A stretch of DNA of 64,000 nucleotides, taken from NCBI RefSeq assembly GCF_905237075.1, contig NW_026136706.1:24719935-24783934 (forward strand), read 5' to 3'. The position numbers were made by a program, and so were the translations under genes. The notes beneath the pieces are model-generated. The model made no database searches, had not been told where the DNA came from, and was given only the letters and a program-made list of their open reading frames with translations. This document shows, in pieces, positions 799-58,938 of this stretch. Source of the DNA: Dicentrarchus labrax (Eukaryota). Position 1 is the first letter of the stretch. The number at the start of each line of letters is the position of its first letter.

Positions 799-900
799 AG
801 TGGACACCGAGGCAGATGAGTCCAACCAGCAGGAGAACAGTGAACAGACCCAGACAGAAAACAACAGATCCATGAAATCTCCTCTCAGAGCTCCTGGGAC
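799..900 (-). CDS. C-type lectin receptor gene 1, exon 2: transmembrane segment GPRSSERRFHGSVVFCLGLFTVLLLVGLICLGVH. The gene continues leftward out of the window.
   Basis: 102 nt between a cag acceptor (RC 901-903) and a gtgagt donor (RC 793-798). It encodes a hydrophobic signal-anchor of about 23 aa. Confidence 0.7.
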
Positions 901-995: not shown

Positions 996-1065
996 CTGTC
1001 TGATTTGCTGAAGGTCTTGGGTCAATGGGTTTGTCATATTCAACATTGGCATAGATCTCCTCCAT
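996..1065 (-). CDS. C-type lectin receptor gene 1, exon 1: cytoplasmic tail MEEIYANVEYDKPIDPRPSANQT, phase-1 donor
   Basis: The reverse complement gives ATG at 1065-1063, 70 nt, with a gtaaa donor (RC at 991-995). It is paralogous to exon 1 of the other four modules. Confidence 0.7.
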
Positions 1066-3241: not shown

Positions 3242-4550
3242 ACACTACCAGTCAGAAGTTTGGACACACCTTCTCATTTAATGGTTTTTCTTTATTTTCA
3301 TGACTATTTACATTGTAGATTCTCACTGAAGGCATCAAAACTATGAATGAACACATATGGAATTATATAGTAAACAAAAAAGTGTGAAATAACTCAAAAC
3401 ATGTTTTATATTTTAGATTCTTCAAAATAGCCACCCTTTGCTTTGATTACTGCTTTGCACACTCTTGGCATTCTCTCGATGAGCTTCATGAGGTAGTCCA
3501 ACAGTCTTGAAGGAGTTCCCAGAGATGCTGAGCACTTGCTGGCTCTTTTGCCTTCACTCTGCGGTCCATCTCATCCCAAACCATCTCGATTGGGTTTAGG
3601 TCAGGTGACTGTGGAAGCCAGATCATCTGGCGCAGCACTCTATCATTCTCCTTCTTGGTCAAATAGCCCTTACACAGCCTGGAGGTGTGTTTGGGGTCAT
3701 TGTCCTGTTGAAAAATAAATGATGGTCCAACTAAACGCAAACTGGATGGGATGGCATGATGCTGCAGGATGCTGTGGTAGCCATGCTGGTTCAGTGTGCC
3801 TTCAATTTTGAATAAATCCCCAACAGTGTCACCAGCAAAGCACCCCAACACCATCACACCTCCTCCTCCATGCTTCACGGTGGGAACCATGCATGTACAG
3901 ACCATCCGTTCATCTTTTCTGCGTGGCACAAAGACACGGCGGGTGGAACCAAAGATCTCAAATTTGTACTCATCAGACCAAAGCAGATTTCCACTGGTCT
4001 AATGTCAATTCCTTGTGTTTCTTGGCCCAAACAAATCTCTTCTGCTTGTTGCTTTTCCTTAGTAGTGTTTTTTTAGCAGCTATCTGACCATAAAGGCCTG
4101 ATTCGCGTAGTCTCCTCTGAACAGTAGAACTCTGTGTGGCATTCATCTGGGCTCTAATCTGAGGTGCTGTTAACTTGCGATTTCTGAGGCTGGTGACTCG
4201 GATGAACTTATCCTCAGCAGCAGAGGTGACTCTTGGTCTTCCTTTCCTGGGGCGGTCCTCATGTGAGCCAGTTTCGTCGTAGCGCTTGATGGTTTTTGCG
4301 ACTGCACTTGGGGACACATTCAAAGTTTTTGCAATTTTCCGGACTGACTGACCTTCAGTTCTTAAAGTAAATGATGGACTGTCGATTCTCTTTACTTAGC
4401 TGATTGGTTCTTGCCATAATATGAATTCTAACAGTTGTCAAATGGAGCTGTTTCATATAAGGGAATAGAAACCTTTTCATGTTGCAGATGTGGGATTAAA
4501 CTGTAAAAATGTAAGATAATAATCACAGGGTGGCTGTGAATATTGACTTG
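3242..4550 (-). mobile_element. Tc1-like DNA transposon of the Sleeping-Beauty-like subfamily, decayed copy
   Basis: The right end TA-CACTACCAGTCAGAAGTTTGGACACACC at 3240 resembles the SB terminus TA-CAGTTGAAGTCGGAAGTTTACATACACC. The transposase ORFs lie on the minus strand. The left end at about 4450-4550 is diverged or truncated. Confidence 0.8.
3486..4323 (-). pseudogene. Tc1/SB-family transposase pseudogene, frameshifted between 3929 and 3973, with the C-terminus out of frame
   Basis: The ORFs at 3973..4323 (HTH: GRPRKTS..) and 3486..3929 (TVKHGGGGVMVLGCF, FQQDNDPKHTS, PQSPDLNPIE = DDE core) are in different frames. The C-terminal LIERMPRVCKAVIKAKGGYFEE is readable at 3420-3486 only in another frame. 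Confidence 0.85.
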
Positions 4551-4900
4551 TTAGAGTAGAGTATGCAAATCAATCTCACCAGTGTAACATACATACAGTT
4601 AAGATTATACCATTTGCCCAACTTTGAAAAGGCACATGAGTATTCAATTGAGATGGATGGTGAACTGGGAGCCCACTTAGTGAAAGAATGTACGCTCCCA
4701 TCTGACCAGCTCCATGTGTCTCTGTAGATCCACATTTGCTGTCCACTTGGCACTTTGTCCTTCATCAGGTCATTCTCAGCTTGGTTCCTCACACTGGCCA
4801 GGTCAGTGTAGTGCTGCCTGCAGTAGCTCTGTGCCGCCTTCCAGGTCTTGGACTCATTCACAAAGATGAAGCTTGATGAAGTGTTCTCTGTGCCTTCCAT
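4523..4900 (-). CDS. Single-exon C-type lectin-like domain (CTLD), an orphan or partial gene; no EPN/QPD or WND calcium-site motifs
   Basis: The minus-strand ORF reads ..SSSFIFVNESKTWKAAQSYCRQHYTDLASVRNQAENDLM..QMWIYRDTWSWSDGSVHSFTKWAPSSP..YSCAFSKLGKWYNLNC.., the CTLD consensus (W..A...C, WIG-like, W.WSDGS, C..... C). The exon boundaries and the rest of the gene are unresolved. Confidence 0.45.
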   Translation of the reverse strand: MEGTENTSSSFIFVNESKTWKAAQSYCRQHYTDLASVRNQAENDLMKDKVPSGQQMWIYRDTWSWSDGSVHSFTKWAPSSPSISIEYSCAFSKLGKWYNLNCMYVTLVRLICILYSNKSIFTATL

Positions 4901-5339
4901 GTATGAAAATATTGATTAGAAGTTTCACAGTGATGCACTTAAAAGACCAGTGTGTAGGATTTAGGGGCATTTAGCAGAGAAGTTGCAGCATGCAACTCCG
5001 CCTGAACGTCGCTTGCTTATGTTTTTGACAACCTGGGAATGAGAATGGGCTGTGCCATTTACAGCCACATGGCAGTTCAACATGCCCGACTCCATGGAAG
5101 GTGACCCGCGTGATCTGTAGATAAAACAGCTAATACTAAGGTAACGGTAACTCAACACTTCCTATATTCAGGTGATTGTACAGGAATTAAAGGCACACTA
5201 TGCAAGATTTTTACCTTAATATAACAGCTTCGAAGTCATTTCGATGGTAAACAAACTCGTAGTATAGCGAATCATCCCGATAGCAAAGCAGGAGAGGGAC
5301 GCTGCTGGCAGAACCAGCAATGCAAGTCTGAAAGGTGGC

Positions 5340-12352: not shown

Positions 12353-14399
12353 TAGGAGTTTAAAGACCGACAGGTTAGTATGTGAAAGATAACACGACCA
12401 CGTTCGTGCCCTTAAATAAGTAAAATTAGTAGGCTATGGTTTATTTTGTGAGAAGTCACTATTTTGCACCACCGTAGTTTAACGAGGCTATCTAGAGAAA
12501 TAGTAGGCTAACTATGGGCATTATCCTCATGGCTAACCAATAGCCTGCCTACGGCTAATTCAACATCTCTGAAAACGCAACTTTCACAGATAATGTTAAT
12601 AATTTGCAAGCTGCTAAAATAAAGCATACAAAACATCAGCTAAAATAATCTATAGGCTATATGATTATAATCAGAGCATGTGCATGTTTGTCAGTGATTT
12701 ATTTCTATTGGGTTATTACAGCATTGAAAGAGCACAGACCTACGCAAAGGAGGAGTATTTGTGAAACGCCTTGTAAGAAATTATGGACTCAAATATAAAG
12801 TTAACCATCAAAGAAATCAGACGTTGAAGTACAGGAAACATTAGCCTATATTAATCCATATATCACAGCTTAAATAACATTAGGTTAACTCATTATTTCC
12901 TATTATTAATTATGGTAATGTTATGGTTAAGTAAATGTTAGCAGTTATCACTATAACCACTGCATATAGAGATGCTAAGTTAGTCACAAGTTATTGTTAC
13001 TATCACACATAAACTATTTAGGTCCTCTGTTATGACAAATGTATCACCATCATATTTTAAATATTTCCATTTTCTTCTGCTACAGAAGTCTGGAGCCACG
13101 GGCTCAATGGCGAGTTTTCTCCTCTGAAAGGAAAGGTTGCGCAACTGACAGAATAAGTTACAATATCTGAGATACTGCTGCTAAATTTTATTTGCTTTTT
13201 TTCAAAGTTCAGAATAAAGATATAGTTATGTTTTCTCTTATGGTTCTTATGATAACCGAGATAATGCTGCTAAATTTATAATTTTTTTACCTTGAATGTT
13301 GAATGTTCATTGCTCTAATTTATTTTTTATATTTTGATATTTCATATTTTGTTCAAATGTTTAATATATCTGCTGTTCATATGTTCATTCATTAAAATCT
13401 TGTCCCGGTTTTAAAATAAAGCACAGCAATGATATTTGAGAGTGTTTCTCCCTTTTCAGGAAAAGTATCGAAAACAATAATTTTGGTATCGTGACAACAC
13501 TTATCACATGTCAACAACAGTTCATGAACACAGAAAGACCTGCACACAAGAACATAATAAATTAAGAAACCGCTGTTTTTTTATAGTAGGACTTGAAACT
13601 ACTGAAACACACATACTGTTCATTAGTGAAGCAGTGTTATCATTTTGATCACTAAGATAAACTCAGTGCATCCCTCGGTCCACTCAACATATTTCCTCTT
13701 AAAAGCATGAAAGCAACAAGAAATGATAATACTGATCTGAGAAAATGAGCTGCAGAGTTTTGAGCTTTAAAATATTCTTTTGAGGATCGTGCCAAAGCAA
13801 CTAAGAAATACTGAAACCCTATCAGTGCTGACAGTGTCTGAATTTTTTTTCGTTGTCTTGCTTGAACCAAAGTTTAGTTGCCAGGCTTTTAATAGCCTTA
13901 CATCAAACTTACTTCTGTTGCCAGGTGTCATTTGTAAGTAGAAAAATGAGCAGCATTATATAAGGTTTCCCCAAAACATCCTTTCCTTATGCAGAGTAGT
14001 TGCGTAAGACCAGAATTTAAGATTGGGCATTAACAGAAAGAAAACTGCTTTATCACTTTGAATGTAATTTTATTTTAGCTCACCAGTACTGCCAACTAAA
14101 GGAAGCACTTTTAAATTAATTTAAATTTAAATTGCACAATTATTTTTAAATTGAGTATACCAGCAGTCAGAACAGTCTAGCATTGTGGACATTGGTTTAA
14201 GTTTTTCTGTCGTATAAACATTACCAGTGTGAGCATTTTCACAAATGTAAAGCTCGCTCTCAGACGCTTCCTAAGAAATAACATATTTTGACTTCCTGTT
14301 TCAAGTGAGATAACAGGCGATTATCTCAGAAATTGTTTTTAGCAACTTTGAGGTGTAACTTCCTTTACTTAAAAGAAAACTGAACCCAGCTTCAGTTTT

Positions 14400-14472
14400 A
14401 TCATTAATGTGTGAAGAGTAGCTTGTGCTGCAGAGCTGACCCACAGCAGAACATTTGGCACTCTTATGAGCG
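14400..14472 (+). promoter_or_regulatory. Conserved promoter-proximal/5' UTR block upstream of the lectin ATG, containing TGCTGCAGAGCTGAC at 14426..14440
   Basis: The same 15-mer sits about 30-40 bp upstream of the ATG in all five lectin 5' modules: 52897-52911 (+) and, as reverse complement, near 1100, 36355 and 58975. Confidence 0.4.
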
Positions 14473-14542
14473 ATGGAGGAAATCTATGAGAATGATAAAT
14501 ATGACGACTGTGCTGACTTAAGAGCATCAAAGAATCAGAGAG
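14473..14542 (+). CDS. C-type lectin receptor gene 2, exon 1: cytoplasmic tail MEEIYENDKYDDCADLRASKNQR
   Basis: ATG at 14473, 70 nt, gtaag donor at 14543. Confidence 0.8.
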
Positions 14543-14662
14543 GTAAGAATAATGATTCATACAGAGAGGCTGACAGACTGAGCTCTGCAGAAATGTGTAT
14601 TATTACCTGTCATTAATGCTGTTGTATCATTTACTGTATTCACTGGTCTTTTCTGTGTTCAG

Positions 14663-14764
14663 GTCCCAGGAGCTCAGAGAGGAGATTTCATGGATCTGTG
14701 GTTCTCTGTCTGGGTCTGCTCACTGTTCTCCTGCTGGTTGGACTCATCCGTCTCGGTGTCCACT
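14663..14764 (+). CDS. Gene 2, exon 2: transmembrane signal-anchor GPRSSERRFHGSVVLCLGLLTVLLLVGLIRLGVH
   Basis: cag acceptor at 14660-62, gtgagt donor at 14765, 102 nt, phase 1 at both ends. Confidence 0.8.
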
Positions 14765-15097
14765 GTGAGTCTTAATAACATTCGGAGGTTAAACTATCTT
14801 GCCTCAATTTTCTCATTTACATTATGTTACTTTGAAGCAGTTGTCTTGTCAGTATTTTGTGAATGCACACAGAAAAAATCAAACCCAAAAAGCCAAATCA
14901 ATCATTTGAAATGTCTCATTACATTTTGGTGCCATGCTCAAATTGAGTTTTGTGATTTTATCATCATTCCAGCATTTATCCAGTATCAACTAATTTCCTT
15001 TTTTAACAGGAGTATCATTTTTAAGACACAACAGCAGTGGCATGTTGTATCTGACAGCTATCTGGTGTTTCAGAGAAGTGTCTGTTGTTTATTTCAG

Positions 15098-15268
15098 ACC
15101 ATGTCTCCGCTCAGCGTTCAGCTGCAGAACTCTCCTCTATCAAAGCCAACCTGACTGAGCGTCTTCAGGCCAGAGACAACAAGTCCTGTTCCCTGACTGA
15201 AGAGAGAGACCTGCTGAATGCCAGAATCACTGAAATGACTCAAGAGCTGGAAAGGCTGACTGGTTTGG
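15098..15268 (+). CDS. Gene 2, exon 3: coiled-coil neck YHVSAQRSAAELSSIKANLTERLQARDNKSCSLTEERDLLNARITEMTQELERLTGL
   Basis: tttcag acceptor, gtgagt donor at 15269, heptad-like L/I spacing, 171 nt. Confidence 0.75.
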
Positions 15269-15563: not shown

Positions 15564-15706
15564 TGAAAACCTGTCCTGAAGGATGGAAGATGTTTAATAA
15601 CACATGTTATCTCCTCTCCAATGAGTCTGGTACCTGGGATAAAGCCAGAGAGGACTGCAGAAACAGAGGAGCAGATCTGGTGGTGATAAACAGCGATGAA
15701 GAGGAG
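15564..15706 (+). CDS. Gene 2, exon 4: CTLD part 1, VKTCPEGWKMFNNTCYLLSNESGTWDKAREDCRNRGADLVVINSDEEE
   Basis: tcttacag acceptor and gtac donor, followed directly by a (GT)n run. Contains the long-form cysteines C0/C0' and C1. Confidence 0.8.
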
Positions 15707-15709
15707 GTA

Positions 15710-15714
<5 letters not shown>

Positions 15715-15760
<46 letters not shown>
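15715..15760. repeat. (GT)n microsatellite in gene 2 intron 4, immediately after the donor
   Basis: About 22 GT units. The same placement is seen in gene B, where (CA)n lies at 31283-31320 on the + strand. Confidence 0.9.
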
Positions 15761-16083: not shown

Positions 16084-16084
16084 C

Positions 16085-16125
<41 letters not shown>
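16084..16125. repeat. (CAGA)n microsatellite
   Basis: cagacagacagacagaca... Confidence 0.9.
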
Positions 16126-16378: not shown

Positions 16379-16482
16379 ACGCTTCTCTCCAAGTTCATAC
16401 CCTACCGTGCTTGGATCGGTTTGACTGACAGAGAGGAGGAAGGGACCTGGAAATGGATAGATGGAACTCCACTGACTCTGAC
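16379..16482 (+). CDS. Gene 2, exon 5: CTLD part 2, TLLSKFIPYRAWIGLTDREEEGTWKWIDGTPLTLT
   Basis: aaaag acceptor, gtaagg donor at 16483, WIGL motif, 104 nt. Confidence 0.75.
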
Positions 16483-17324: not shown

Positions 17325-17475
17325 GTACTGGGCAAGAAATCAGCCTGATAATGGTGGTGGAAGCTCAAAGTGGGGTGAAGAGGACTGTGCACATATCAGC
17401 ACGGAGGATTTCAATCACTGGAATGATCGGTCCTGTGAAGATTCTGTGCAATGGATCTGTGAAAAAACAGCCTAA
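17325..17475 (+). CDS. Gene 2, exon 6: CTLD part 3, YWARNQPDNGGGSSKWGEEDCAHISTEDFNHWNDRSCEDSVQWICEKTA*
   Basis: ctag acceptor. QPD (galactose-type) and WND calcium/sugar-site motifs are present. TAA stop at 17473-75. Confidence 0.8.
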
Positions 17476-24300: not shown

Positions 24301-24484
24301 AGGTGCATAGCAACAACAGTAGAACAACTACACTAATAGTAGTGACTGACAATGACAGTAACCGTAGCTATAATAATACTTATAATAATAATAACAACAC
24401 TAATATCAGTGATATTGGCAATGGCAGTCAAGCAGTACCATGGTAGGAGGCTCCACCAGGATCCATTATATATATGTGTATATA

Positions 24485-26116
24485 CAGTGGGTACCGAAAG
24501 TATTCAGACCCCTTTAAAATTTTCACTCCTTGTTTCATTGCAGCCATTTGCTAAAATCAAAAAAGTTCATTTTATTTCTCATTAATGTACACTCAGCACC
24601 CCATCTTGACAGAAAAAAACAGAAATGTAGAAATTTTTGCAAATTTATTAAAAAAGAAAAACTGAAATATCACATGGTCATAAGTATTCAGACCCTTTGC
24701 TGTGACACTCATATTTAACTCACATGCTGTCCATTTCTTCTGATCCTCCTTGAGGTGGTTCTGCTCCTTCATTGGAGTCTAGCTGTGTTTAATTAAACTG
24801 ATTGGACTTGATTAGGAAAGGCACACACCTGTCTATATAAGACCTTACAGCTCACAGTGCATGTCAGAGCAAATGAGAATCATGAGGTCGAAGGAACTGC
24901 CCAAGGAGCTCAGAGACAGAATTGTGGCAAGGCACAGATCTGGCCAAGGTTACAAAAGAATTTCTGCAGCACTCAAGGTTCCTAAGAGCACAGTGGCCTC
25001 CATAATCCTTAAATGGAAGAAGTCTGGGATGACCAGAACTCTTCCTAGACCTGGCCGTCCAGCCAAACTGAGCAATCGTGGGAGAAGAGCCTTGGTGAGA
25101 GAGGTAAAGAAGAACCCAAAGATCACTGTGGCTGAGCTCCAGAGATGCAGTAGGGAGATGGGAGAAAGTTCCACAAAGTCAACTATCACTGCAGCCCTCC
25201 ACAAGTCGGGGCTTTATGGCAGAGTGGCCGGACTGAAGCCTCTCCTCAGTGCAAGACATATGAAAGCCCGCATAGAGTTTGCCAAAAAACACATGAAGGA
25301 CTCCCAGACTATGAGAAATAAGATTCTCTGGTCTGGTGAGACCAAGATTGAACTTTTTGGCGTTAATTCTAAGCGGTATGTGTGGAGAAAACCAGGCACT
25401 GCTCATCAGCTGCCCAATACAATCCCAACAGTGAAACATGGTGGTGGCAGCATCAGGCTATGGGGATGTTTTTCAGCTACAGGGACAGGACGACTGGTTG
25501 CAATTGAAGGAAAGATGAATGCGGCCAAGTACAGAGATATCCTGGAAGAAAACCTCTTCCAGAGTGCTCAGGACCTTAGACTGGGCCGAAGGTTCACCTT
25601 CCAACAAGACAATAACCCTAAGCACACAGCTAAAATAACAAAGGAGTGGCTTCGGAACAACTCTGTGACCATTCTTGACTGGCCCAGCCAGAGCCCTGAC
25701 CTAAACCCAATTGAGCATCTCTGGAGAGATCTGAAAATGGCTGTCCACCAACGTTCACCATCCAACCTGACAGAACTGGAGAGGATCTGCAAGGAAGAAT
25801 GGCAGAGGATCCCCAAATCCATGTGTGAAAAACTTGTTGCATCATTCCCAAGAAGACTCATGGCTGTAGTAGCTCAAAAGGGTGCTTCTACTCAATACTG
25901 AGCAAAGGGTCTGAATACTTATGACCATGTGATATTTCAGTTTTTCTTTTTTAATAAATTTGCAAAAATTTCTACATTTGTTTTTTTTCTGTCAAGATGG
26001 GGTGCTGAGTGTACATTAATGAGAAATAAAATGAACTTTTTTGATTTTAGCAAATGGCTGCAAAGAAACAAAGAGTGAAAAATTGAAAGGGGTCTGAATA
26101 CTTTCCGTACCCACTG
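24485..26116 (+). mobile_element. Complete Tc1-like DNA transposon (1632 bp) with TA target-site duplications and 30-bp TIRs CAGTGGGTACCGAAAGTATTCAGACCCCTT
   Basis: TA at 24483-84 and 26117-18. Both ends carry inverted copies of cagtgggtac(c/g)gaaagtattcagacccc. Confidence 0.95.
24861..25901 (+). CDS. Tc1-family transposase, 346 aa, intact ORF with a helix-turn-helix region and a DDE catalytic region. The first catalytic Asp is replaced by Gly (LWSGETK).
   Basis: The ORF reads MSEQMRIMRSKELPKELRDRIVARHRSGQGYKRISAAL...ILWSGETKIELFG...FQQDNNPKHT...DWPSQSPDLNPIEHLW... Codon GGT at 25333-35 stands where copy 3 and canonical Tc1/SB have GAT. Confidence 0.9.
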   Translation: MSEQMRIMRSKELPKELRDRIVARHRSGQGYKRISAALKVPKSTVASIILKWKKSGMTRTLPRPGRPAKLSNRGRRALVREVKKNPKITVAELQRCSREMGESSTKSTITAALHKSGLYGRVAGLKPLLSARHMKARIEFAKKHMKDSQTMRNKILWSGETKIELFGVNSKRYVWRKPGTAHQLPNTIPTVKHGGGSIRLWGCFSATGTGRLVAIEGKMNAAKYRDILEENLFQSAQDLRLGRRFTFQQDNNPKHTAKITKEWLRNNSVTILDWPSQSPDLNPIEHLWRDLKMAVHQRSPSNLTELERICKEEWQRIPKSMCEKLVASFPRRLMAVVAQKGASTQY

Positions 26117-26942
26117 TATATGCATTGGCTATGTTCATATAACAACAAATATGATCTTAATCTCTATGGGCTTTTACCTGGTTAAATAAAGCTTAAATGA
26201 AATAATATAATACAAGGATTTCAATATTCATATAATTTATTATGTTGTGTCTATGTTAATTAACCATATTTTAAAATTTGCAATATCCTTTGTTACAACT
26301 TAAGCATTTGTTTTATTAAGTCAGTTTTAGCCCCATCAGCTACCACAAAGTGGAACTAACTTGCTCATTAAGCTGGTCGTGCTGGATAGGCTATGGTTGT
26401 GCATCTGTTGTCTCCAGGACTCCTGTTCCTGGAGCAGATGACCATATAATATCTGTCACAAAAGTAGTGTTTAAATCGGAGCAATCTGAAGCTCCCGGGG
26501 ATTACTTTTATATATGTTTATTATTTGAAACTTTGGACAAGTTTATTATGAACACCCAACATTGTACCATTATATAGGCCTATATGACAGAAAATAAAGG
26601 AAAGCATAGCAATAGCAATATGTCCCCTTTAAGAATGCAACTCCGTTTGACACATATGAAAAATGGAAACATATATAATACATAATAAGGTATAAGCAAC
26701 ACAAAAAGTCAGATTTTCAAATAATGTTTCACTTTTACATGAAAAAAGGCTTTGAGGATTAGACTGAACTTTTCATACATTGTACTCATTTATACAGTCT
26801 GATTACATAAATTCCATTTCTTTTACAGACATAGATTATTCATGTCAACATACAAGACCATTTACGACTAAAGCCACTCCATAATCAGAGCTTATATAGA
26901 AAAAGCATTATCAAATGTATGATCTCAAAACATACAGCAATG

Positions 26943-27084
26943 TTAAGCTGTTTTCTCGCAGACCCATGGCAAAGAAAGTTTACACGACCTGTCATTCCAT
27001 GTATTGTCGAATTTAATTGTATGTACACAGTCCTCTTCACCACCGTCTTGACTCCCATTACTAGGCTGACCTGTTGCCCAGTAC
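26943..27084 (-). CDS. C-type lectin receptor gene B, exon 6 (last): YWATGQPSNGSQDGGEEDCVHTIKFDNTWNDRSCKLSLPWVCEKTA*
   Basis: Reverse complement of 26943-27084. ctag acceptor (RC 27085-88). QPS instead of QPD. WND retained. Stop at 26943-45. Confidence 0.75.
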
Positions 27085-27897
27085 CTAGGAGGTTAGAAAA
27101 CGAGAGAATCGTGACACTGTTTATCTCTGACATGAACACAGCCCTTAAACAGCTTCATCACCAAGATCCATCAGCCCTGGACAAACCACATTTGTTTCTG
27201 AAACAGTGGGTTCAATATAATCTTAAAGATTGGAAAATATGTCCTCCATCTTTAAAGTGACTCATTTGTAGTGTTTTCTAAAGAGACTGTACTCTCTATT
27301 ATGTTTATGTTCAAGTGGCTGTAGTAAATGAGGAAGTCAGCTGAGGTCTTTATAGAGCAGCAAAGTCTGCAAAGGGAGGACGTCGGGGTGATTGGTTGTT
27401 AAGTCCTTGTTGAGTCATTGAGCAAATTCCATTTCCTCATATATAATTAATTCTAATTAAGTGTGATATTCATTGCAGACATGATGGTAGCAGTATGCTA
27501 CTGCAGATTTTACATGAAAGATGCAATACAACTCATCTCCTCCATATAGCCTTAATATCTGGCTTTATTTTACCTATCCATCTAAAAGCTAAATACAGAT
27601 GGACTATTGGACCTAACATTCATCTGGTGGACAGAATTAAGTCCAGATGTGTGTCTCCTGGATGTGTAAATAGGCAATTTTTGCCTTCTCCATTGCTATA
27701 AAATGGTTAAAGGTGATAATATGTCATGGCTCTGAGTTTAGCAGCTTATTGTGGAGTTATTCTGCCCCCATGTGGACAACAAATTAATCTGTACAGTTTT
27801 AAGATTTAACAAACTTCCATGAATGCACAGAATCAATTAAATTCTAGTAATATAAAATGATAGTTGATGTTGATATTAAACCAGAGTGAAGCCTTAC

Positions 27898-28001
27898 GTC
27901 AGAGTCAGTGGAGTTCCATCTATCCATTTCCAGGTCCCTTCCTCTCCTCTCTTAGTCAAACCAATCCAAGCATAGGTTTTGTAGAACTTTGAGACAAATG
28001 T
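27898..28001 (-). CDS. Gene B, exon 5: TFVSKFYKTYAWIGLTKRGEEGTWKWIDGTPLTLT
   Basis: aacag acceptor (RC 28002-04), gtaagg donor (RC 27893-97), 104 nt. Matches gene 2 exon 5 over WIGLT..EEGTWKWIDGTPLTLT. Confidence 0.75.
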
Positions 28002-28280
28002 CTGTTAACAAAAAAGAAACTCACATTATATTTACACAATATATATACACACATTAAAATGATTACTGTAACCTAACCATTACAATGAAATATTACCTAG
28101 AAGAAGAAACAAATAGAGGGTATAGAGGGTGTCTGTTACCAGAAAGACACCTTGATGTTGTCCACAGTGAGACAGTCATTGTTGTAGCTGGGTTTTATGT
28201 TGAGGTTTAGATTAGATTAGAAAACATACAGTACAAAAGTGTACAGTGATGTTTAGGAGTGAGTATGTAATTCACAGATG

Positions 28281-28520
28281 AGGCGGCTGTGGCTCAGAGG
28301 CAGAGTGGGTCGTTCCCTAATTGGAAGGTTGTGGGTTCAACCCCCGGCTCCTGGTGCCACGCATAGGTGTGTGAAGTTTCTATTCGATGGACTTTGCCGT
28401 GAATGTGGCACGTAGTGTAAAAGCGCTTTGAGTGGTCGGAAGACTAGAAAGGCACTATACAAGCACAGGTCCATTTACCATCCATCACTTTATCAGTGAC
28501 GGCTGGTGGTCATTTTGGGT
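28281..28520 (+). mobile_element. tRNA-derived SINE with a Deu-domain (Deu-SINE family), in gene B intron 4
   Basis: The tRNA-like head is ggctgtggctcagaggcagagtgggtcg...gggttcaacccccggc (box A/B-like). It is followed by gtaaaagcgctttgagtggtcggaagactagaaaggcactatacaagcacaggtccatttaccat, which matches the conserved Deu-domain core. Confidence 0.75.
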
Positions 28521-28799
28521 GGGTGGGCTAACAAATGTATTACACTCATCAATACTTCACACAGCATCAACAGCAGCAACAGTAGCATCACATCAAGTCA
28601 CAGCAACAACACTGGGGAGACATATCCAAAAGAATGGCTCTCTCTCTCTCTCCTCTGTACACATCAGCACATGTCAATTGCGCTACAACAACATTATAGA
28701 AAAGTACCAGCAACATTTTGTAACACCATGTACCAGAAATAAATCTATAACACCAAAGCAAAAATAATTATTTGTAGACGAGAGAGTTGTTTCAGAGCT

Positions 28800-30800
28800 T
28801 GGGCATACCTTATTTAAAAAGCAGCTCTCATCGACGGCGTTTCTGTGATGCAAATAGGTTATTCACCATGTCATTAAAGCCTGCTGATTTTTTGATGAAG
28901 TCCCGCTCAATGGACAGCATAGCCAGTTTGTTTAGCCTGTCCTGTCTCATTGTACTTCTAAGAAAGGATTTGATCCTTTTCAGTGTACTGAAACACCTCT
29001 CTGACTCTGCAGATGATGGGGGTTGTGATGGCTATGTGGGTTACTTTCAGTGTTTCAGAAAAAGTGCTCTATGGATTGTTCATTGTCACTCTCAAAAGTG
29101 AGATTGCAGACATTAGGTCTGCAAACTTCACACTGCTGTACATGACCATCAGTTTATCCCTGCAGATCACTGGGTAATGAGCACATGCAATGTCCAGCTA
29201 CTTCTGCAGGAAAGTGTTCTTAAACAGTGGAAAGATTTCAGGGTCAATATGTTTGAAAGACACCAAGTGCCTGGCTTTCTTATTATGTGGCCATTATGTG
29301 ACAGCACTGTGCGGCCATTATGTGACAGCACTGTGCGGCTTTTGACACATTATCAGACCACCGCATCCTGCGCGGCGTTGCAGCGGCCGCAGCTGTGTCC
29401 ATGTCTGGATGTGGCTGATTGTCATCTGTGGTCAGAAGTTCAGATATGGAGGATGAAAAATTCTTCAGGGCCTGTCTCGTTTTGAGAGACTCTGTGATCT
29501 GTTTCTGAAGAATGCTGTAGAGAATATCTACATGCATGAGGGCAGAGTGGGAAGAAGATAAAAAGAAAAGAAAGCTGAGGTCCCCCAGAAATGCGGACAG
29601 GTTGTCCCAAGACTAATCATCCTGTACTTTTTCAAAACACTGTTTCAAAGTGTCCTGATGTTCAAACATGGTGTGGCTGGTACAGCTTGTAAAGTTCCAC
29701 CTTCTTTGTCCTGACGCTGGCATCCTCCTGCCACACACTTCATCTAGGACTGCCGTTGTCTTGGGGGACTTGGAGAAAAACATTTGCAAAAAATATTCTG
29801 ACGGCTGTGTGAGATGAGCAGGCCTGTTGCATGATGAGGTTTAACTGGTGGGCATAGCAGTGCATAAAGTGTGCGTGAGGGAGTGTGTCCTTTAACCTGG
29901 CCTTTAGGCTGGATGATGCACCGCTCATTACAGCTGCCCCGCCATATGTCATATGTGCGATCAGTTTGTTCTCCAACGTATATGGCTGTAGCTTCTCCAG
30001 CAGCAGTGTTTCGAGTCCCGCTGCAGTTCTATCAACTAACAGGGAGAAAGTGAGGAATCTTTCCACCACCATGGTGGCTTCAATGACGTACCTGAACACA
30101 ATCACACACTGGCTTACACAGGTCACATCTGCAATATTTCATCTGCCAGTTTTTGTTCATAAATCTCTAACATACAGTCAAGCAACTCATTTTGGCTGGT
30201 CTTAGATGTGTACTTGGCAACCTGTCTAAAAAAGAGAACCGGTTGACGAGGTCCAGAAACACAGATTCATCGGACCCCTGCAGGGCAACCTTGTGTCCCC
30301 CACAAAATGTAATACAGTCTACAATCTGTGAAAGTGAATGACTGTTTTTCTTTACCAGCTCGTTGTGTCTCTGTACAGCGGCCCTCATTAAGCTGACAGG
30401 TGATGTTCACTTTAACCAGCAATGACAACTTTACTCTATTTCCAATGTGGCTTGTGTTTCATGTTTTCTAATTTTGTCAGATAAATGCTTCAAATCCACA
30501 ATTCCTTGTTGGGTCCAAACCGTGTCTCCTCCAAAAAGCAAACATGGGAAAAAGTGAACTGAATCACAGAAAAGTGAATTCCTAGCTACACTTGCCAGTC
30601 CTTTCCTTAAAACCACGTAACACAAAAGTTAAGATTTTGTCGTTTGTGTTATTTGAATGTCTTTTGGATGATGTGTCCCAAATCTCTTCACTTCCAATTT
30701 TCCCTCCAAAGACATTAAAGAAAGTAAATAATCCACCTCGTTCATGTTCATGCGAACGCCCGCCATTACTACAGTTGCTCACTTCCCCCTCTCCACGTTC
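28800..30800 (-). pseudogene. hAT-superfamily transposase pseudogene with multiple frameshifts (ZBED/Charlie-like); copy 1, inside gene B intron 4
   Basis: Minus-strand ORF fragments at 30431..30625, 30167..30388 and 29740..30126 contain ..MTYGGAAVMSG...HFMHCYAHQLNL.., the hAT C-x-A-H-x-L-N-L block. The C-terminal RC of 28800-28900 gives KLAMLSIERDFIKKSAGFNDMVNNLFASQKRRR*, which is hAT-dimerisation-domain-like. It is paralogous to 62505-64000. Confidence 0.7.
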
Positions 30801-31282
30801 TACTACAAACTAGCCTCACTGTAGCCTCATGCAGTGGCTACTGCGCTGGGATTGGTCGAAAGTCGCTGTACTGTAGCTACTGCGCTGTGATTGGTCGAAG
30901 GTTACTGGCCTTTGGGCTGAATGAATTTAGCCCAAATGGCCAATAAATCAAGGGGGAGTGTCACGACACCTGTCAATCCAAATTGAATGGAAGCGTACGC
31001 TACTGTGCTTGGGCTGTAAGAAATAAGTCCATTCAAAGGAAAAACCCAGGATATATCATATATCCTTTTTTCTGTCACTGTTTGGTGCTGCTGCTGCTCT
31101 AGGTTCCACCAATATTTAAAACAATATGTTCTAAGGTTTTTAATAATAGTTTTTCATCTTTATTGTAAAAGACAGGGGGGGCTTAGCCCTGATATGGAGA
31201 ATCTAACCCAGACCTTATTGATTTATTACAATCTATCTATTGAGATTTTTTTTGTATGAATTTCAATATTAACAAAATCGTG

Positions 31283-31283
31283 C

Positions 31284-31320
<37 letters not shown>
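31283..31320. repeat. (CA)n microsatellite abutting the gene B exon 4 donor
   Basis: cacacacacacaca... Confidence 0.9.
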
Positions 31321-31321
<1 letters not shown>

Positions 31322-31326
31322 TGTAC

Positions 31327-31469
31327 CTGCTCTTCGTCACTGTTTATCACCGCTAGATCTGCTCCTCTGTTTCTGCAGTCCTCTCTGGCTTTATCCCAGG
31401 TACCAGACTCAGTGGAGAAGAGATAAGAGCGGTCCTTAAACATCTTCCATCCTTCAGGATAGGTTTTTA
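31327..31469 (-). CDS. Gene B, exon 4: LKTYPEGWKMFKDRSYLFSTESGTWDKAREDCRNRGADLAVINSDEEQ. Both C0 and C0' cysteines are replaced (C to Y, C to S).
   Basis: The reverse complement reads AAA ACC TAT CCT GAA GGA TGG ... CGC TCT TAT CTC. Acceptor tcttacag, donor gtac followed by (GT)n, as in gene 2. Confidence 0.8.
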
Positions 31470-31772
31470 CTGTAAGATAAACATACAGAGACATCACAGA
31501 CCAACAAGACTCATGTAAATATTTGTGAAGTTATCTCTGTAGATGTCATTTTCAGTGAATGACCTTTCAATGCCCCTCAATATATGTTCATTTGGTTGGT
31601 GATTTTTTTGCCGATATAAGAGGATTTACTGTCACAATGTAGCGGTGTGCAGAGATAGAGGCCACAGTTGTACCAGTGGTCCATAATAATATACTGTTTA
31701 ATTTAGTTGTGATTAATGAAAGGTTACATTTGAAAGCCTGAAACTGGCTTCTCATAAAATAGATAGATAAAA

Positions 31773-33597: not shown

Positions 33598-33699
33598 CAG
33601 TGGACACCGAGGCCGATGAGTCCAACCAGCAGGAGAACAGTGAGCAGACCCAGACAGAGAACAACAGATCCATGAAATCTCCTCTCTGAGCTCCTGGGA
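33598..33699 (-). CDS. Gene B, exon 2: transmembrane GPRSSERRFHGSVVLCLGLLTVLLLVGLIGLGVH
   Basis: 102 nt. Donor gtgagt (RC 33592-97), acceptor cag (RC 33700-02). Confidence 0.8.
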
Positions 33700-34229
33700 C
33701 CTGAACACAGAAAATGATACAACAGCATTAATGACAGGTAATTGTTGGGATCCAAGGATACCTTTAAACATGAACTTGTTCATTTGAAGTGTTTAACTGG
33801 ACCAAAAGGGAAATGTTGGAATATGGCCACATGTGTTTTACACAAAGGAAATGGTCTTTACTACAGTGGCCTGTATGTGAGTAATAAAGCCTGCTTGCAG
33901 TGAAAAGACAAAGAAAAAACGCCTGCCAGATAACAGACCTCACAGTGGGGGTCCAGGAATGCGGTCAAGTTGGGGCATAAGGGCAATAAACGACTTTCAT
34001 TAGTCAGATTCCCTCGGACCCCAGACCCGTCATCCCGGCTTTAAGCCAGAGAGACGCTCTTCTCTCTCTCTTCTCTTCTGGTGGTGTTTGTAGCGCCCCC
34101 TACAGGATTTTAAAAAAGCAGCCCCGGCGCCACGTTTCGCCGATATGTATGAAACTTGGTAGGCATGTGTAACGTGCCTGAGACGTACAAAAAAGCCTCT
34201 TGGACCCATGTCCCAAATCCCACAGGAAG

Positions 34230-36256: not shown

Positions 36257-36326
36257 CTTTCTGATTCTGGGATGCTCTTAAGTCAGCAAAGTTGTCATGT
36301 TTAACATTTGCATAGATTTCCTCCAT
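36257..36326 (-). CDS. Gene B, exon 1: MEEIYANVKHDNFADLRASQNQK
   Basis: ATG as RC of 36324-26, gtaaga donor (RC 36251-56), 70 nt. Confidence 0.75.
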
Positions 36327-43376: not shown

Positions 43377-44534
43377 ATGAACCCAGCCAACTCAGACCAC
43401 CTGTCGGCAACCATTCGCTCCCATAGCGTACGCCTTAATCAGCAGGAGGACCAGATGTCCGCCGTGCATCAGGGAGTGAAAACGCTGGCAGACAGTCAAG
43501 AGGAGTTCAGGTCTGGCATGACAGCCCAAGTGACTCTCTTGTCTACCCAGATTCATCAGGTGTTTGCTCACCTGACCAAGGACCCCTCAGCCACGCCTCC
43601 CCCGGCGATCGCCGTAGCACCACCAGTTCCAGGTACCCACGCCCTGGCTCCTCGTCTCGCTCCACCCGAAAAATTCTCTGGTGAGTCTGGAGAATGCCGG
43701 TGGTTCATTGTGAACTGTGAAATGCACTATGAACAATTGCCATCAGCCTTCCCCACAGAAAAATCCAAGGTGGCGTTCATGATCTACCATCTCACTGGGA
43801 GAGCAAGGGCTTGGGCTACGGCGGAATGGTCCCGTGGATTGTCGATCTGTCAATCCGTGGATCGGTTCATAGAGGCGTTGAGGAGAGTTTTCGACCCTAC
43901 CACGTCAGACAGAGAAACGGCACGCAAGCTGAGCAGCATCAGGCAAGGCATGGACTCTGTTTCTGATTATGCCATCCGCTTCCGCACCTTAGCCACAGAT
44001 AGCGGGTGGAATTCCACAGTGCTGTATGATGCTTTTATCAAAGGACTCTCTGATCCCATACAAGATTTATTGGTTCCTCTTGATCTGCCTGAGGATCGTG
44101 ACTCTGTGATCGCGTTAGCGGTCAGAACTGACCATCGCTTGACGGAGCGGAACAGGGACAAGTCACAAGCTACAGTTTTCCTGGATCACACCAGAGGTCA
44201 TCCTTTGCCTGCTTCACGTGGTTGGAGGGATTCTCTCCGTCCGTCATCGCCAGTCCCGAGGAGAGCAGTACCCCCCAGCAACTCGGAGGAACCCATGCAG
44301 CTAGGAAGGGCCAAGTTGTCTGCAGAGGAGCGACGACGCCGCCTACAGGAAGGGAGGTGCTTCTATTGTGGACAACTGGGACATCTGCTGGCAGCATGCC
44401 CAGTTAAAGAGAATGCCCACCAGCTGAAGGAGGGATTCCGGGTGAGTCACTCCTCCACCACTGACAGTCCCTCCCGCTCCCTAACTGACATCCAGGTAAA
44501 ACACCATGACAGTTTCTCTGGGAGTATTAATTGA
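43377..44534 (+). CDS. Retrotransposon Gag with a CCHC zinc knuckle (CFYCGQLGHLLAACP)
   Basis: 385-aa ORF with a capsid-like region and C-x2-C-x4-H-x4-C at the C-terminus. Confidence 0.85.
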   Translation: MNPANSDHLSATIRSHSVRLNQQEDQMSAVHQGVKTLADSQEEFRSGMTAQVTLLSTQIHQVFAHLTKDPSATPPPAIAVAPPVPGTHALAPRLAPPEKFSGESGECRWFIVNCEMHYEQLPSAFPTEKSKVAFMIYHLTGRARAWATAEWSRGLSICQSVDRFIEALRRVFDPTTSDRETARKLSSIRQGMDSVSDYAIRFRTLATDSGWNSTVLYDAFIKGLSDPIQDLLVPLDLPEDRDSVIALAVRTDHRLTERNRDKSQATVFLDHTRGHPLPASRGWRDSLRPSSPVPRRAVPPSNSEEPMQLGRAKLSAEERRRRLQEGRCFYCGQLGHLLAACPVKENAHQLKEGFRVSHSSTTDSPSRSLTDIQVKHHDSFSGSIN

Positions 44535-49369: not shown

Positions 49370-49375
49370 TATATA

Positions 49376-52943: not shown

Positions 52944-53013
52944 ATGGAGGAAATCTATAGGAATGATGAATATGACGACTGTGCTGACTTAAGAGCATCC
53001 CAGAATCAGAGAG
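52944..53013 (+). CDS. Lectin 5' module 3, exon 1: MEEIYRNDEYDDCADLRASQNQR
   Basis: ATG at 52944, gtaag donor at 53014, 70 nt. The upstream sequence is about 90% identical to gene 2 upstream. Confidence 0.7.
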
Positions 53014-53133
53014 GTAAGAATAATGATTCAGACAGAGAGGCTGACAGACTGAGCTCTGCAGAAATGTGTATTATTACCTGTCATTAATGCTGTTGTATCA
53101 TTTACTGTATTCACTGGTCTTTTCTGTGTTCAG

Positions 53134-53235
53134 GTCCCAGGAGCTCAGAGAGGAGATTTCATGGATCTGTTGTTCTCTGTCTGGGTCTGCTCACTGTTCT
53201 CCTGCTGGCTGGACTCATCTGCCTCTGTGTCCACT
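53134..53235 (+). CDS. Lectin 5' module 3, exon 2: GPRSSERRFHGSVVLCLGLLTVLLLAGLICLCVH (transmembrane). No neck or CTLD exons follow within 5.4 kb.
   Basis: cag acceptor at 53131-33, gtgagt donor at 53236, 102 nt. Confidence 0.7.
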
Positions 53236-58772: not shown

Positions 58773-58871
58773 CTGAAAGATCAGTGAATACAGTCAAGTG
58801 TACAATATTAATAATGACAGATGATAATATGTATCTGTGCACAACCTCTCAGTCTGACTGAACGGTCTTAC

Positions 58872-58938
58872 CTGTCTGATTTGCTAAAGGTCTTGGGTCG
58901 ACGGGTTTATATTCAACTTTGACATAGATCTCCTCCAT
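58872..58938 (-). CDS. Lectin 5' module 4, exon 1: MEEIYVKVEYKPVDPRPLANQT
   Basis: ATG as RC of 58936-38, gtaag donor (RC 58867-71), 67 nt, phase 1. The upstream sequence is of the gene-1 class. Confidence 0.7.

Follow-up and report, generated by a model that had tools for sequence, protein, structure and literature searches.

An N-terminal EEIYxN tyrosine motif of teleost group II lectin receptors resembles known phosphotyrosine docking and sorting signals

A group of lectin receptor gene copies in the sea bass, Dicentrarchus labrax, raises the question of what has been selected in the first few residues of the encoded tails, where a tyrosine at residue 5 follows two acidic residues and an isoleucine and is mostly followed, at +2, by an asparagine. 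The window analysed is a stretch of 64,000 nucleotides (contig NW_026136706.1, positions 24,719,935 to 24,783,934 of the forward strand), and positions given below are counted from its first letter. From comparison of sequences, the motif has the look of a signal for phosphotyrosine docking and for sorting, such as is known from prolectin, MGL and ASGR1. The preferred reading, held with a little less than even confidence, is that this N-terminal cytosolic tyrosine motif of group II lectin receptors would be a kinase substrate, a docking site for Grb2-family adaptors and, in most members, also a YxxΦ signal (Φ being hydrophobic).

The focal gene has six exons (Table 1), with AG/GT at all exon boundaries, and over 246 aa the model shows 100% identity to the NCBI 'CD209 antigen-like protein E' of the same species (P0001). 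The Pfam Lectin_C match has E = 2e-23, and the best single-CTLD PDB relatives are CLEC4F, CD209, CLEC10A, ASGR2 and Mincle, with similar scores. Because of these features, together with the QPD...WND pair, the gene is predicted to encode a group II, type II C-type lectin receptor (ASGR / DC-SIGN / CLEC4 / CLEC17A type). Since exon 2 carries a transmembrane segment, exon 1, which coincides exactly with the span singled out in the earlier note, is predicted to be cytosolic and the lectin domain C-terminal. Neither an Rfam scan of the whole window nor a tandem-repeat scan around the focal gene gave anything relevant.

Table 1. Features of the window. Exon-1 copies are named by the position and strand of their first coding letter.
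Feature	Position	Strand	Sequence	Exon 1 translation	Remarks
Upstream ORF, short, out of frame	14466..14489	+	ATGAGCGATGGAGGAAATCTATGA, MSDGGNL-stop		overlaps main start
In-frame TGA	14467-14469	+			blocks N-terminal extension
Exon 1, focal gene (14473+)	14473..14542	+	MEEIYENDKYDDCADLRASKNQR(G)	MEEIYENDKYDDCADLRAS	70 nt, GT donor at 14543
Motif codons	14473-14493	+	MEEIYEN		
Exon 2, focal gene	14663..14764	+			conserved juxtamembrane GPRSSERRFHG and transmembrane segment
Exon 3, focal gene	15098..15268	+			coiled-coil neck
Exon 4, focal gene	15564..15706	+			first C-type lectin domain (CTLD) exon
Exon 5, focal gene	16379..16482	+			second CTLD exon, with WIGL
Exon 6, focal gene	17325..17475	+			third CTLD exon, QPD and WND sugar/Ca2+ motifs, stop codon
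Exon-1 copy (1065-)	996..1065	-	MEEIYANVEYDKPIDPRPSANQT(G)	MEEIYANVEYDKPIDPRP	Pro-rich sub-type
Exon 2 of copy 1065-	799-900				remainder of gene past the window's left edge
Exon 1, second complete gene (36326-)	36257..36326	-	MEEIYANVKHDNFADLRASQNQK(G)	MEEIYANVKHDNFADLRAS	matches NCBI isoform X1 (P0394)
Exon 2 of gene at 36326-	33599-33700				CTLD exons extend to 26946
Exon-1 copy (52944+)	52944..53013	+	MEEIYRNDEYDDCADLRASQNQR(G)	MEEIYRNDEYDDCADLRAS	within 445-bp duplicate 52822-53264
Exon 2 of copy 52944+	53134-53235				duplicate stops past this exon; no CTLD exons behind
Exon-1 copy (58938-)	58872..58938	-	MEEIYVKVEYKPVDPRPLANQT(G)	MEEIYVKVEYKPVDPRP	67 nt, Lys at +2; within ~530-bp duplicate 58625-59141
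Exon 2 of copy 58938-	58671-58772				duplicate stops past this exon; no CTLD exons behind

Exon 1 is the first coding exon, as the earlier note had supposed: the NCBI models begin at the same Met, the sole upstream ATG, at position -7, is out of frame, and an in-frame TGA lies two codons upstream (-6 to -4). Each of the five window copies has this TGA, as do 10 of 12 copies over four species. The cross-species nucleotide comparison covered loci of mackerel, rainbowfish and snakehead together with sea bass, and in all four the 5′UTR immediately upstream is conserved as well. Whatever the residue at position 2, its codons all start with G, and the E/D found there is explained in part by the Kozak G at +4 and N-terminal processing.

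Searching the window with the pattern ATGGARGARATHTAY gives exactly five matches (1065-, 14473+, 36326-, 52944+ and 58938-), with 0 expected from shuffles, and the translations listed earlier agree with those of the retranslated exon-1 copies. The claim that all five begin with MEEIYxN is right for MEEIY, with Tyr at residue 5 in every copy, but only four have the Asn at +2. Complete gene bodies are present only for 14473+ and 36326-, since the duplicates at 52944+ and 58938- extend from the promoter through exon 1 and intron 1 to exon 2 and no further, and 1065- is cut off by the window edge. The five are paralogues and not independent events; flanks and intron are ~90-99% identical among copies of one sub-type. 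(The teleost lectin family is very large, with several tandem paralogues at every locus examined.) The two sub-types previously distinguished downstream of the motif, acidic DDCADLRAS and Pro-rich KP(I/V)DPRP, are real. When these diverged sub-types are compared, identity is 89-94% in motif codons 1-5 and 7, as against 57-65% in the rest of exon 1 and 51-59% in the upstream 110 nt, and the higher identity of the motif codons is real evidence of constraint. The sea bass acidic sub-family has the motifs YEND, YRND, YVTD (twice) and YVKV (one fragment). Within it, the focal gene, with YEND, and the 52944 copy, with YRND, seem to be part of an acidic-tail sub-family that is young and for the most part peculiar to sea bass, YEND being a derived variant in which YxN was kept and the hydrophobic residue lost. 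As the motif is degenerating in this sub-family, the focal copy may be under relaxed constraint.

Conservation is strong and extends well beyond Dicentrarchus labrax, so that neither of the two outcomes which the earlier note named as refuting its proposal was obtained. Of 95 percomorph homologues with both Met1 and Tyr5, 93 are acidic at position 2 and 90 at position 3, 89 have I/V at position 4 (-1 to the tyrosine), 90 have Asn7, and 81 have V/I/L/M/F at position 8; in a count over 98 homologues, position 3 is E or D in 93. Fitch changes, counted on a tree made from residues 25 onward, number 7, 10, 8, 5 and 7 at positions 2, 3, 4, 5 and 7, and 41, 27, 24 and 37 at positions 6, 8, 9 and 10. 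At class level there are 5 changes for Asn versus other and 11 for hydrophobic versus other. Sequences with Tyr5 divide into 75 with Asn and Φ, 9 with Asn only, 2 with Φ only and 3 with neither. A clade of cichlids with MEEISASAES lost Tyr5 long ago, and Asn7 is lost there too. Proteins of smelt, characiforms and loach also have IYxN, in some cases with several occurrences in one tail, and in smelt, characiform and sablefish proteins there are internal recurrences away from any start codon. A search with P0001 of a representative set of 1.84 billion proteins gave mostly multi-CTLD mannose-receptor-like proteins; ~30 short matches were useful, with taxa obtained by cluster look-up. Conservation of the motif, with the consensus M-[E/D]-[E/D]-I-Y5-x-N-[V/I]-[E/D]-[Y/H], is teleost-wide in a tandemly expanded lectin receptor family.

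With regard to a kinase, c-Src prefers Ile/Leu/Val at -1, and its peptide SrcTide is AEEEIYGEFE (PMC10065799). E-E-I-Y is present in all five window copies, and the acidic residues at -3/-2 and slow-evolving Ile at -1 fit SrcTide. To this extent the idea of a Src-type substrate is well founded, but EEIY is not specific for Src, because the optimal peptides of Csk and Abl share it. On the other side of the tyrosine, the Grb2 SH2 domain binds pY-E/V/Q/K-N-V/I/L, with the Asn essential, and validated sites include yVNV (LAT), yVNI (SHC1), yANF (PTPRA) and also yENV (PMC3694890). The slowly evolving Asn at +2, which changes just 5-7 times on the tree, fits this consensus, as the earlier note had proposed. 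The slowly evolving positions (acidic at -3 and -2, Ile at -1, Tyr, and Asn at +2) are thus those that the earlier note had named. With Ile constrained at -1 and Asn at +2, the tail fits both a substrate of tyrosine kinases and a pYxN site of Grb2 type in a putative cytosolic, disordered segment. The partner of a linear motif of 4-7 residues is not assignable from sequence alone, and the conservation of Asn7 could serve another partner or a structural turn.

On the preferred reading, glycan-driven clustering of the coiled-coil receptor would lead to phosphorylation of Tyr5, whose E-E-I-Y context would be near-optimal, by a Src-family or similar non-receptor tyrosine kinase. The pTyr5-x-Asn7 so generated would be bound by the SH2 domain of a Grb2-family adaptor, leading to Ras-ERK or PI3K signalling, a docking step modelled on what is reported for prolectin (CLEC17A) of mammals and its acidic-YENx motif. 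When unphosphorylated, Y-x-N-V/I would in most members of the family read as YxxΦ, an AP-2 endocytosis signal, and Tyr5 would then be a switch between uptake and signalling. In the focal gene and the 52944 copy, which have Asp at +3 instead of a hydrophobic residue, the YxN reading alone would be left. A broader extension of this, possible but rather doubtful, is that teleosts have a third route apart from the (hem)ITAM-Syk and ITIM-SHP of mammalian C-type lectin receptors, with a single N-terminal E-E-I-pY-x-N-Φ, Src-family phosphorylation, direct Grb2-family docking and, when unphosphorylated, AP-2 uptake, and that the YENF of MGL and the DDYEN of prolectin would be divergent remnants of the ancestral motif. 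If true, it would provide a concrete mechanism for MGL/CLEC10A reaching ERK.

One alternative, somewhat unlikely, is that unphosphorylated Tyr5-x-x-Val/Ile acts purely in sorting, binding AP-2 mu2 for clathrin-mediated glycan uptake like Tyr-5 of ASGR1 and MGL and without an SH2 adaptor, with Asn7 and Ile4 conserved for secondary reasons. The hydrophobic residue at +3 in 81/98 homologues and in three of the five window copies (YANV, YANV and YVKV) is as expected for this, as is the position of the tyrosine, since 89 of the 102 mammalian MGL/ASGR proteins that bear the motif likewise have it at residue 5. The Ca2+/sugar site of the family (QPD...WND) is also of the sort usual in endocytic lectins of hepatic type, and YENF and YQDL have been described as endocytic motifs (PMC7404283, PMC4709716). 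However, AP-2 binding does not call for Asn at +2 or for Ile at -1, yet both are more constrained than +3, and Asn without Φ is commoner than Φ without Asn. In mammalian endocytic receptors, +2 is free among N, D and K, unlike in fish, and since +3 is Asp in the focal copy and 52944+, these two do not fit YxxΦ at all. Activation of hemITAM type, quite improbable here, would have pTyr5 in dimers or trimers recruit the tandem SH2 domains of Syk, as for CLEC9A, CLEC-2 and Dectin-1, with fish group II lectins filling the role of the absent Dectin-1 cluster. What recommends it is a single N-terminal tyrosine after acidic residues in the tail of a type II lectin, and a likeness of the fish consensus EEIYANVEYDKP to CLEC9A EEEIY(T/R)SLQWD (local alignment score 45 against a shuffle mean of 17). 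In addition, a review reports that the MGL YENF has been termed a hemITAM and signals via Src/Syk (PMC7404283), and fish genomes have yielded no clear Dectin-1 homologue (PMC6400144). The acidic residues notwithstanding, the window copies have V, V, V, D and D at +3, and the defining Leu/Ile is present in 0/5 of them and in just 12/98 homologues (I in 10, L in 2), so that a strict hemITAM is excluded because +3 is Val or Asp. Nor do hemITAMs prefer Asn at +2 (S in CLEC9A), and the at least 90% conservation of Asn7 would be left unexplained. The +2 residue is T in CLEC-2 and Q in Dectin-1.

Inhibition of ITIM type ([I/V/L/S]-x-Y-x-x-[I/V/L]), with recruitment of SHP-1, SHP-2 or SHIP as for DCIR/CLEC4A, is barely credible. 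The N-terminal ITIM of DCIR/CLEC4A is ITYAEV, and there is a loose likeness to its Y-A-E-V. Y-A-x-V, with small +1 and aliphatic +3, also matches part of the SHP2 C-SH2 preference (PMC10065799). Nevertheless, an ITIM is excluded because every one of the five window copies has Glu at -2, which is position 3 with its E/D in nearly all homologues, and the focal copy has, besides, Asp at +3. The earlier note was accordingly correct in placing the motif with neither hemITAM nor ITIM. The last alternative, very unlikely and already disfavoured, dispenses with function at the protein level and invokes nucleotide constraints at the start codon (Kozak, the overlapping upstream ORF, 5′UTR elements) plus recent ancestry. 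The conserved adjacent 5′UTR and the invariant G of the position 2 codons are in its favour, as is the ~90% identity everywhere of copies of one sub-type. Yet in the four-species comparison amino acids are kept through synonymous changes at Asn7 (AAT/AAC), Ile4 (ATC/ATT/ATA) and the Glu codons (GAA/GAG), and the recurrences away from start codons are also at odds with it. Further, no site of the tail varies more than position 6 (41 changes), although it lies within the motif, and this is the signature of the x position of a linear motif and not of a nucleotide element.

From a practical perspective, the conserved and precisely delimited seven-residue motif would be a handle for fish immunologists, with a predictable tryptic N-terminal peptide, MEEIYANVEYDK. 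Fish are without clear Dectin-1-type hemITAM receptors, and their group II lectin receptors are expanded. In the literature searched (figures and most subscription journals lay outside the search), no fish-lectin paper was found to print or discuss the literal motif; it is unmentioned in three on fish lectins (PMC11084180, PMC4691118, PMC6400144), and the carp study screened YxxL/I only. The concept itself, tyrosine motifs on lectin tails and Grb2 co-purification for prolectin, is already known, and the fish motif may best be regarded as a sound, only modestly novel hypothesis. The view in the earlier note that it is distinct to this lectin family does not survive: it is not a new class, because of the YxxΦ fit at a Tyr5 positioned as in ASGR1 (YQDL) and MGL/CLEC10A (YENF), an alignment that the same note had asked about, and because prolectin YENx-Grb2 is published.

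Of the known systems, CLEC9A has EEEIY-x-S-L-Q-W-D against EEIY-x-N-V-E-Y-D in fish. Generally the hemITAM receptors (CLEC9A / CLEC-2 / Dectin-1) have Leu/Ile at +3 and no Asn at +2, whereas fish have Val/Asp at +3 and near-invariant Asn at +2, and the former belong to group V, with non-Ca2+ lectin-like domains. Fish tails were locally aligned, with 2000 shuffles, to the CLEC17A repeat unit, CLEC10A, an ASGR1-like tail and CLEC9A. Of these comparators, CLEC10A was confirmed against P0121 and the first 13 CLEC9A residues against PMC2562446, where, however, the residue at +1 of the tyrosine is Arg and not the Thr of the sequence aligned. Both Syk and the Src kinase Lyn are partners bound by the CLEC9A phosphopeptide (PMC2562446). 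Against CLEC9A, the fish consensus and the 1065- tail are clearly above shuffles (p <= 0.001), the focal copy tail gives p = 0.0015 against CLEC10A and a weak p = 0.007 against CLEC17A, and the consensus tail is not above shuffles against CLEC17A (p = 0.37) or ASGR1, all these tails being too short for proof of homology by local alignment. For Pfam PF03954 Lectin_N, human CLEC10A has E = 2e-43 and fish P0001 and P0008 have no match at E <= 10. Because of this lack of a Lectin_N match, and of a CLEC17A alignment above shuffles, the likeness to mammalian motifs is taken to be positional and pattern-based only. In its downstream half, Y-[A/V/E]-N-[V/I], the fish motif has the same letters as the Grb2 sites of LAT, SHC1, NTAL and PTPRA, but those are in scaffolds or receptor tyrosine kinases, most often with more than one site to a protein, not N-terminal and with no lectin domain.

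Prolectin/CLEC17A, of mammalian germinal-centre B cells, is like the fish proteins a membrane lectin of type II, and its CRD is of the Ca2+ type. Tyrosine phosphorylation of prolectin and its co-purification with Grb2 have been shown, and its authors refer to the YXNX rule, a motif that its tail has (PMC2709368). BLAST of fish proteins gives slightly better scores for CLEC17A (120-125 bits) than for MGL/ASGR (99-124 bits), and several fish homologues, including a sea bass isoform, are named 'CLEC17A-like' by NCBI. In its tail an acidic run precedes Y-E-N-x, with at least one such motif in 106/120 mammalian sequences and 1-3 repeats. The motif is internal in a PxxP-rich tail of well over 100 residues, in contrast to the extreme N-terminus of a ~35-residue tail in fish, with Asp at -1 and a non-hydrophobic +3 (M/S/T/A) where fish have Ile and usually Val/Ile, and the receptor mediates no endocytosis. 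The primate CLEC17A repeat is GT-MEEEEEDDDYEN...PKPG, and fish exon 1 is MEE...NQTG. Sablefish protein P0112 has two MEEIY units in tandem, which suggests that prolectin repeats may be duplicated exon-1 units.

In ASGR1 and MGL, as in fish, the tyrosine is at residue 5, in the pattern M-x-x-x-Y-x-[N/D]-Φ-[Q/E]-[Y/H], and the Y-E-N of MGL is identical to that of the focal copy. Tyr5 of CLEC10A and ASGR1 is needed for internalisation and signalling and is reported to be required, in the MGL/ASGR1 type, for Src/Syk-ERK-CREB signalling (PMC7404283). Unlike in fish, there is no acidic/Ile context upstream (MTRT, MTKE, MSVK), and +3 is always F, L or I, the Φ that the focal copy is without. Among the 102 motif-bearing mammalian MGL/ASGR proteins, Φ at +3 is present in 102/102, with N (56), D (39) or K (7) at +2; in CLEC17A, all 133 motifs counted have YEN, and their +3 is M, S, T, A or E. 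Both Asn at +2 and Φ at +3 are retained in the consensus of the fish. This three-way comparison, with Asn and Φ in fish, Φ only in MGL/ASGR and Asn only in prolectin, parts the constraints of uptake from those of an adaptor, and it turns attention to the YENF of human MGL as a possible Grb2 binder.

Exon 1 of the focal gene is a 70-nt first coding exon with a GT donor at its end, and the six-exon model that it opens (table) yields a product of 246 aa with 100% identity to the NCBI 'CD209 antigen-like protein E' of Dicentrarchus labrax (P0001) and a single Pfam Lectin_C domain with QPD and WND motifs. Since exon 2 encodes, along with a conserved GPRSSERRFHG stretch, the transmembrane segment, the part encoded by exon 1 is the N-terminal, cytosolic end of a group II C-type lectin receptor of type II topology. 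Structures of CLEC4F, DC-SIGN, CLEC10A, ASGR2 and Mincle resemble its lectin domain to about the same degree. Two simple repeats lie in the intron after exon 4. An upstream start, about which the earlier note had been wary, is countered by an in-frame TGA at -6 to -4 in all five window copies, and in 10 of 12 exon-1 copies from sea bass, chub mackerel, rainbowfish and snakehead; NCBI models from dozens of species start at the same Met, and exon 1 stands as the first coding exon. The single nearby upstream ATG in the window copies (at -7, ATGAGCRATGG) is out of frame and opens an ORF of 7-10 codons overlapping the main start. Seven of the 12 exon-1 copies from those four fishes carry it, and the overlapping ORF could be a translational control element.

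Features of the lectin receptor stretch, with copies named by exon 1 start and strand
Feature	Position	Strand	Remarks
Focal gene, six-exon model	14473-14542, 14663-14764, 15098-15268, 15564-15706, 16379-16482, 17325-17475	+	AG/GT at all junctions
Upstream ORF of focal gene	14466-14489	+	equivalent in other four copies
(GT)24 microsatellite, perfect	15712-15759		begins five bases past exon 4 donor
(CAGA)10 repeat	16084-16125		same intron
36326- copy, second complete gene	exon 1 at 36326; exon 2 33599-33700; lectin-domain exons down to 26946	-	CTLD exons 26946-31470
1065- copy	exon 1 at 1065	-	exons 1-2 in window, remainder beyond its edge
52944+ copy	14349-14793 vs 52822-53264	+	within duplicate, 93.5% match
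58938- copy	753-1270 vs 58625-59141	-	within duplicate, 88% match
Divergent lectin-like ORF	4526-4915	-	single exon
Putative transposable-element ORFs	24861-25901 (+), 48248-48931 (-), 3486-3929 (-), 43377-46486 (+)		
Repeat pair	24479-26121 vs 47806-49375		92.6% identical

The window holds five matches to a degenerate M-E-E-I-Y pattern, and shuffles hold none. The five translations are identical to those of the earlier note, though its reading of all five as MEEIYxN needs amending, with Asn at +2 from the tyrosine in four and Lys in 58938-. Copies of the same sub-type are ~90-99% identical throughout, introns included, and most of the fivefold recurrence is thus a product of duplications that are recent. 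Across the two diverged sub-types, with acidic (DDCADLRAS) or proline-rich (KP(I/V)DPRP) tails, identity is 89-94% in motif codons 1-5 and 7 as against 57-65% for other exon 1 sequence and 51-59% upstream, making the motif a conserved island even within the window. The duplicates holding 52944+ and 58938-, which converge, cover the promoter and the first two exons with intron 1 between them, and nothing more; ORFs and splice donors are intact in both, and no lectin-domain exons were found behind either in the window. Because NCBI isoform X2 (P0005) of the 36326- gene starts with a further exon 1 (MEEIYVTDEYDDC...), absent from the window, these orphan cassettes may serve as alternative first exons, exchanging one tyrosine motif for another. 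The 36326- gene as it stands in the window equals isoform X1 (P0394), which begins MEEIYANVKHDNFADLRAS. In its CTLD (C-type lectin domain) both N-terminal 'long-form' disulfide cysteines are replaced together (KTYPEGW...DRSYLFS vs KTCPEGW...NTCYLLS in the focal gene) and QPD of the sugar site has become QPS, changes suggestive of a domain either diverging in specificity or decaying. Between the receptor genes lies a lectin of a different type, a divergent C-type lectin-like domain (WSWSDGS...) with ~30% identity to the CTLD of the focal gene. Apparent transposons, putatively Tc1/mariner transposases (one of 346 aa seemingly complete, shorter ones seemingly truncated) and a gypsy-like gag-pol retroelement, take up much of the sequence between the lectin genes and inside them.

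Beyond this species, the core flagged in the earlier note is conserved. A Met start and Tyr5 are shared by 95 of the 120 homologues listed (percomorph fishes wherever a source name was given), and among these 95 there is E/D at position 2 in 93 and at position 3 in 90, I/V at position 4 in 89, Asn at position 7 in 90 and, an addition to that core, V/I/L/M/F at position 8 (+3) in 81. As homologues are related to one another, Fitch changes were also counted on a neighbour-joining tree built from residue 25 onward, for 98 sequences picked irrespective of Tyr5: positions 2, 3, 4, 5 and 7 changed 7, 10, 8, 5 and 7 times, and positions 6, 8, 9 and 10 changed 41, 27, 24 and 37 times. At class level, Asn-versus-other at position 7 changed five times and hydrophobic-versus-other at position 8 eleven times; Tyr5 sequences on the tree have both Asn and a hydrophobic +3 in 75 cases, Asn only in nine, the hydrophobic only in two and neither in three. 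Counts and tree together define a constrained core, [E/D][E/D]-I-Y-x-N, then usually V or I, in which only Met1 and Tyr5 are more constrained than Asn7. In a cichlid clade of longer receptors without Tyr5 (MEEISASAES; P0007, P0015, P0016, P0063) Asn7 is lost too and MEEI kept. IYxN extends beyond percomorphs to Osmerus mordax (DDIYANID and EDIYVNYS), the characiform Prochilodus magdalenae (P0356; SIYMNVED and DIYENFYS within a single tail) and Triplophysa dalaica (AIYENIQ). The smelt tail (P0352) has six tandem S[D/E]DIYA[K/T]PDMTQKVK repeats before DDIYANID, their IYAxP being an Abl-substrate and Crk-type pYxxP pattern. Sablefish (Anoplopoma fimbria) P0112 has two complete tandem MEEIY...NQT units reminiscent of primate CLEC17A repeats MEEEEEDDDYEN...PKPG. 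The acidic-tail sub-family, to which the focal copy and 52944+ belong, was seen in full in sea bass only among the homologues listed, and its motif is unusually variable (YEND, YRND, YVTD twice, YVNV, YANV), which could be specialisation or relaxed constraint.

A nucleotide-level or neutral origin for this pattern is very improbable given that Ile4 and Asn7 are retained despite synonymous codon changes in four species, that the hypervariable x position sits within the motif, and that the motif also occurs internally, away from any start codon. The upstream half, E-E-I-Y, fits the classic Src optimal peptide AEEEIYGEFE and the -1 preference measured for c-Src (Ile, Leu or Val; PMC10065799); the same context is found in Csk and Abl peptides, which points to a good substrate for non-receptor tyrosine kinases, not the specifically Src-type one proposed earlier. 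The downstream half matches, as had been suggested, the Grb2 SH2 rule pY-E/V/Q/K-N-V/I/L, with its essential +2 Asn (PMC3694890), and validated Grb2 sites in LAT, SHC1, NTAL/LAX1 and PTPRA read Y-V-N-V, Y-V-N-I, Y-E-N-V and Y-A-N-F (PMC3694890, PMC10065799).

The consensus Y-x-N-V/I is also a YxxΦ signal (Φ, hydrophobic) with its tyrosine at residue 5, but that it is a sorting signal of this kind and nothing more is rather unlikely: Asn7 and Ile4 would be left unexplained, and the focal copy (YEND), like 52944+ (YRND), has Asp at +3, leaving only the YxN reading there. To our knowledge pYxN alone among the well-known tyrosine-motif classes requires Asn at +2. A hemITAM-like Syk motif is improbable; the fish consensus EEIYANVEYDKP is strikingly like the CLEC9A hemITAM region EEEIY-x-SLQWD, but the defining +3 Leu/Ile is missing in all five copies and 86 of 98 homologues. 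An ITIM, failing at -2, is scarcely credible, and the earlier exclusion of both is upheld. What we tentatively favour, from the pattern of constraint, is dual use of the tyrosine, which when unphosphorylated would serve as a YxxΦ uptake signal and, after kinase action, as a pYxN adaptor-docking site. Gene structure, topology and the pattern of constraint are what the analysis shows; phosphorylation, the identity of kinase and adaptor, and endocytosis are inferred.

The original observation is thus confirmed with minor corrections. Its interpretation is partly supported: kinase substrate plus pYxN is what the constraint favours, qualified by overlap with a known endocytic signal and by a published mammalian counterpart. 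The motif is neither a new class nor 'distinct' as the earlier note had proposed. Fish lectin-tail screens covered YxxL/I only (PMC6400144) and, within the literature open to searching, no paper was found that prints or discusses the fish motif, which thus stands as a so far undescribed example of an element of known kind. Of two mammalian families compared by BLAST to the fish proteins, CLEC17A is marginally best (120-125 bits; MGL/ASGR 99-124); Pfam Lectin_N has no match in the fish proteins and short local alignments of fish with mammalian tails are mostly not above shuffles, so tail homology is not demonstrable. The resemblance to ASGR endocytic motifs that the earlier note had raised does hold by position, with the tyrosines of ASGR1 (MTKEYQDLQH) and MGL/CLEC10A (MTRTYENFQY), tails verified in 120 mammalian proteins, at residue 5 exactly as in fish; in reviews these Tyr-5 motifs are assigned to internalisation and signalling (PMC7404283, PMC4709716). 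In mammalian MGL/ASGR, +3 is hydrophobic in 102 of 102 motif-bearing proteins and +2 is variable, with Asn in 56, Asp in 39 and Lys in 7. Of 120 prolectin/CLEC17A proteins, 106 retain one to three copies of acidic-Y-E-N, where +3 is M, S, T, A or E; by published account prolectin is tyrosine-phosphorylated, co-purifies with Grb2 and does not mediate endocytosis (PMC2709368). Fish thus retain together the Asn kept by CLEC17A and the hydrophobic kept, beside a variable +2, by MGL/ASGR, with prolectin the closest published mechanistic precedent and the Tyr-5 signal of ASGR1 and MGL the closest positional one.
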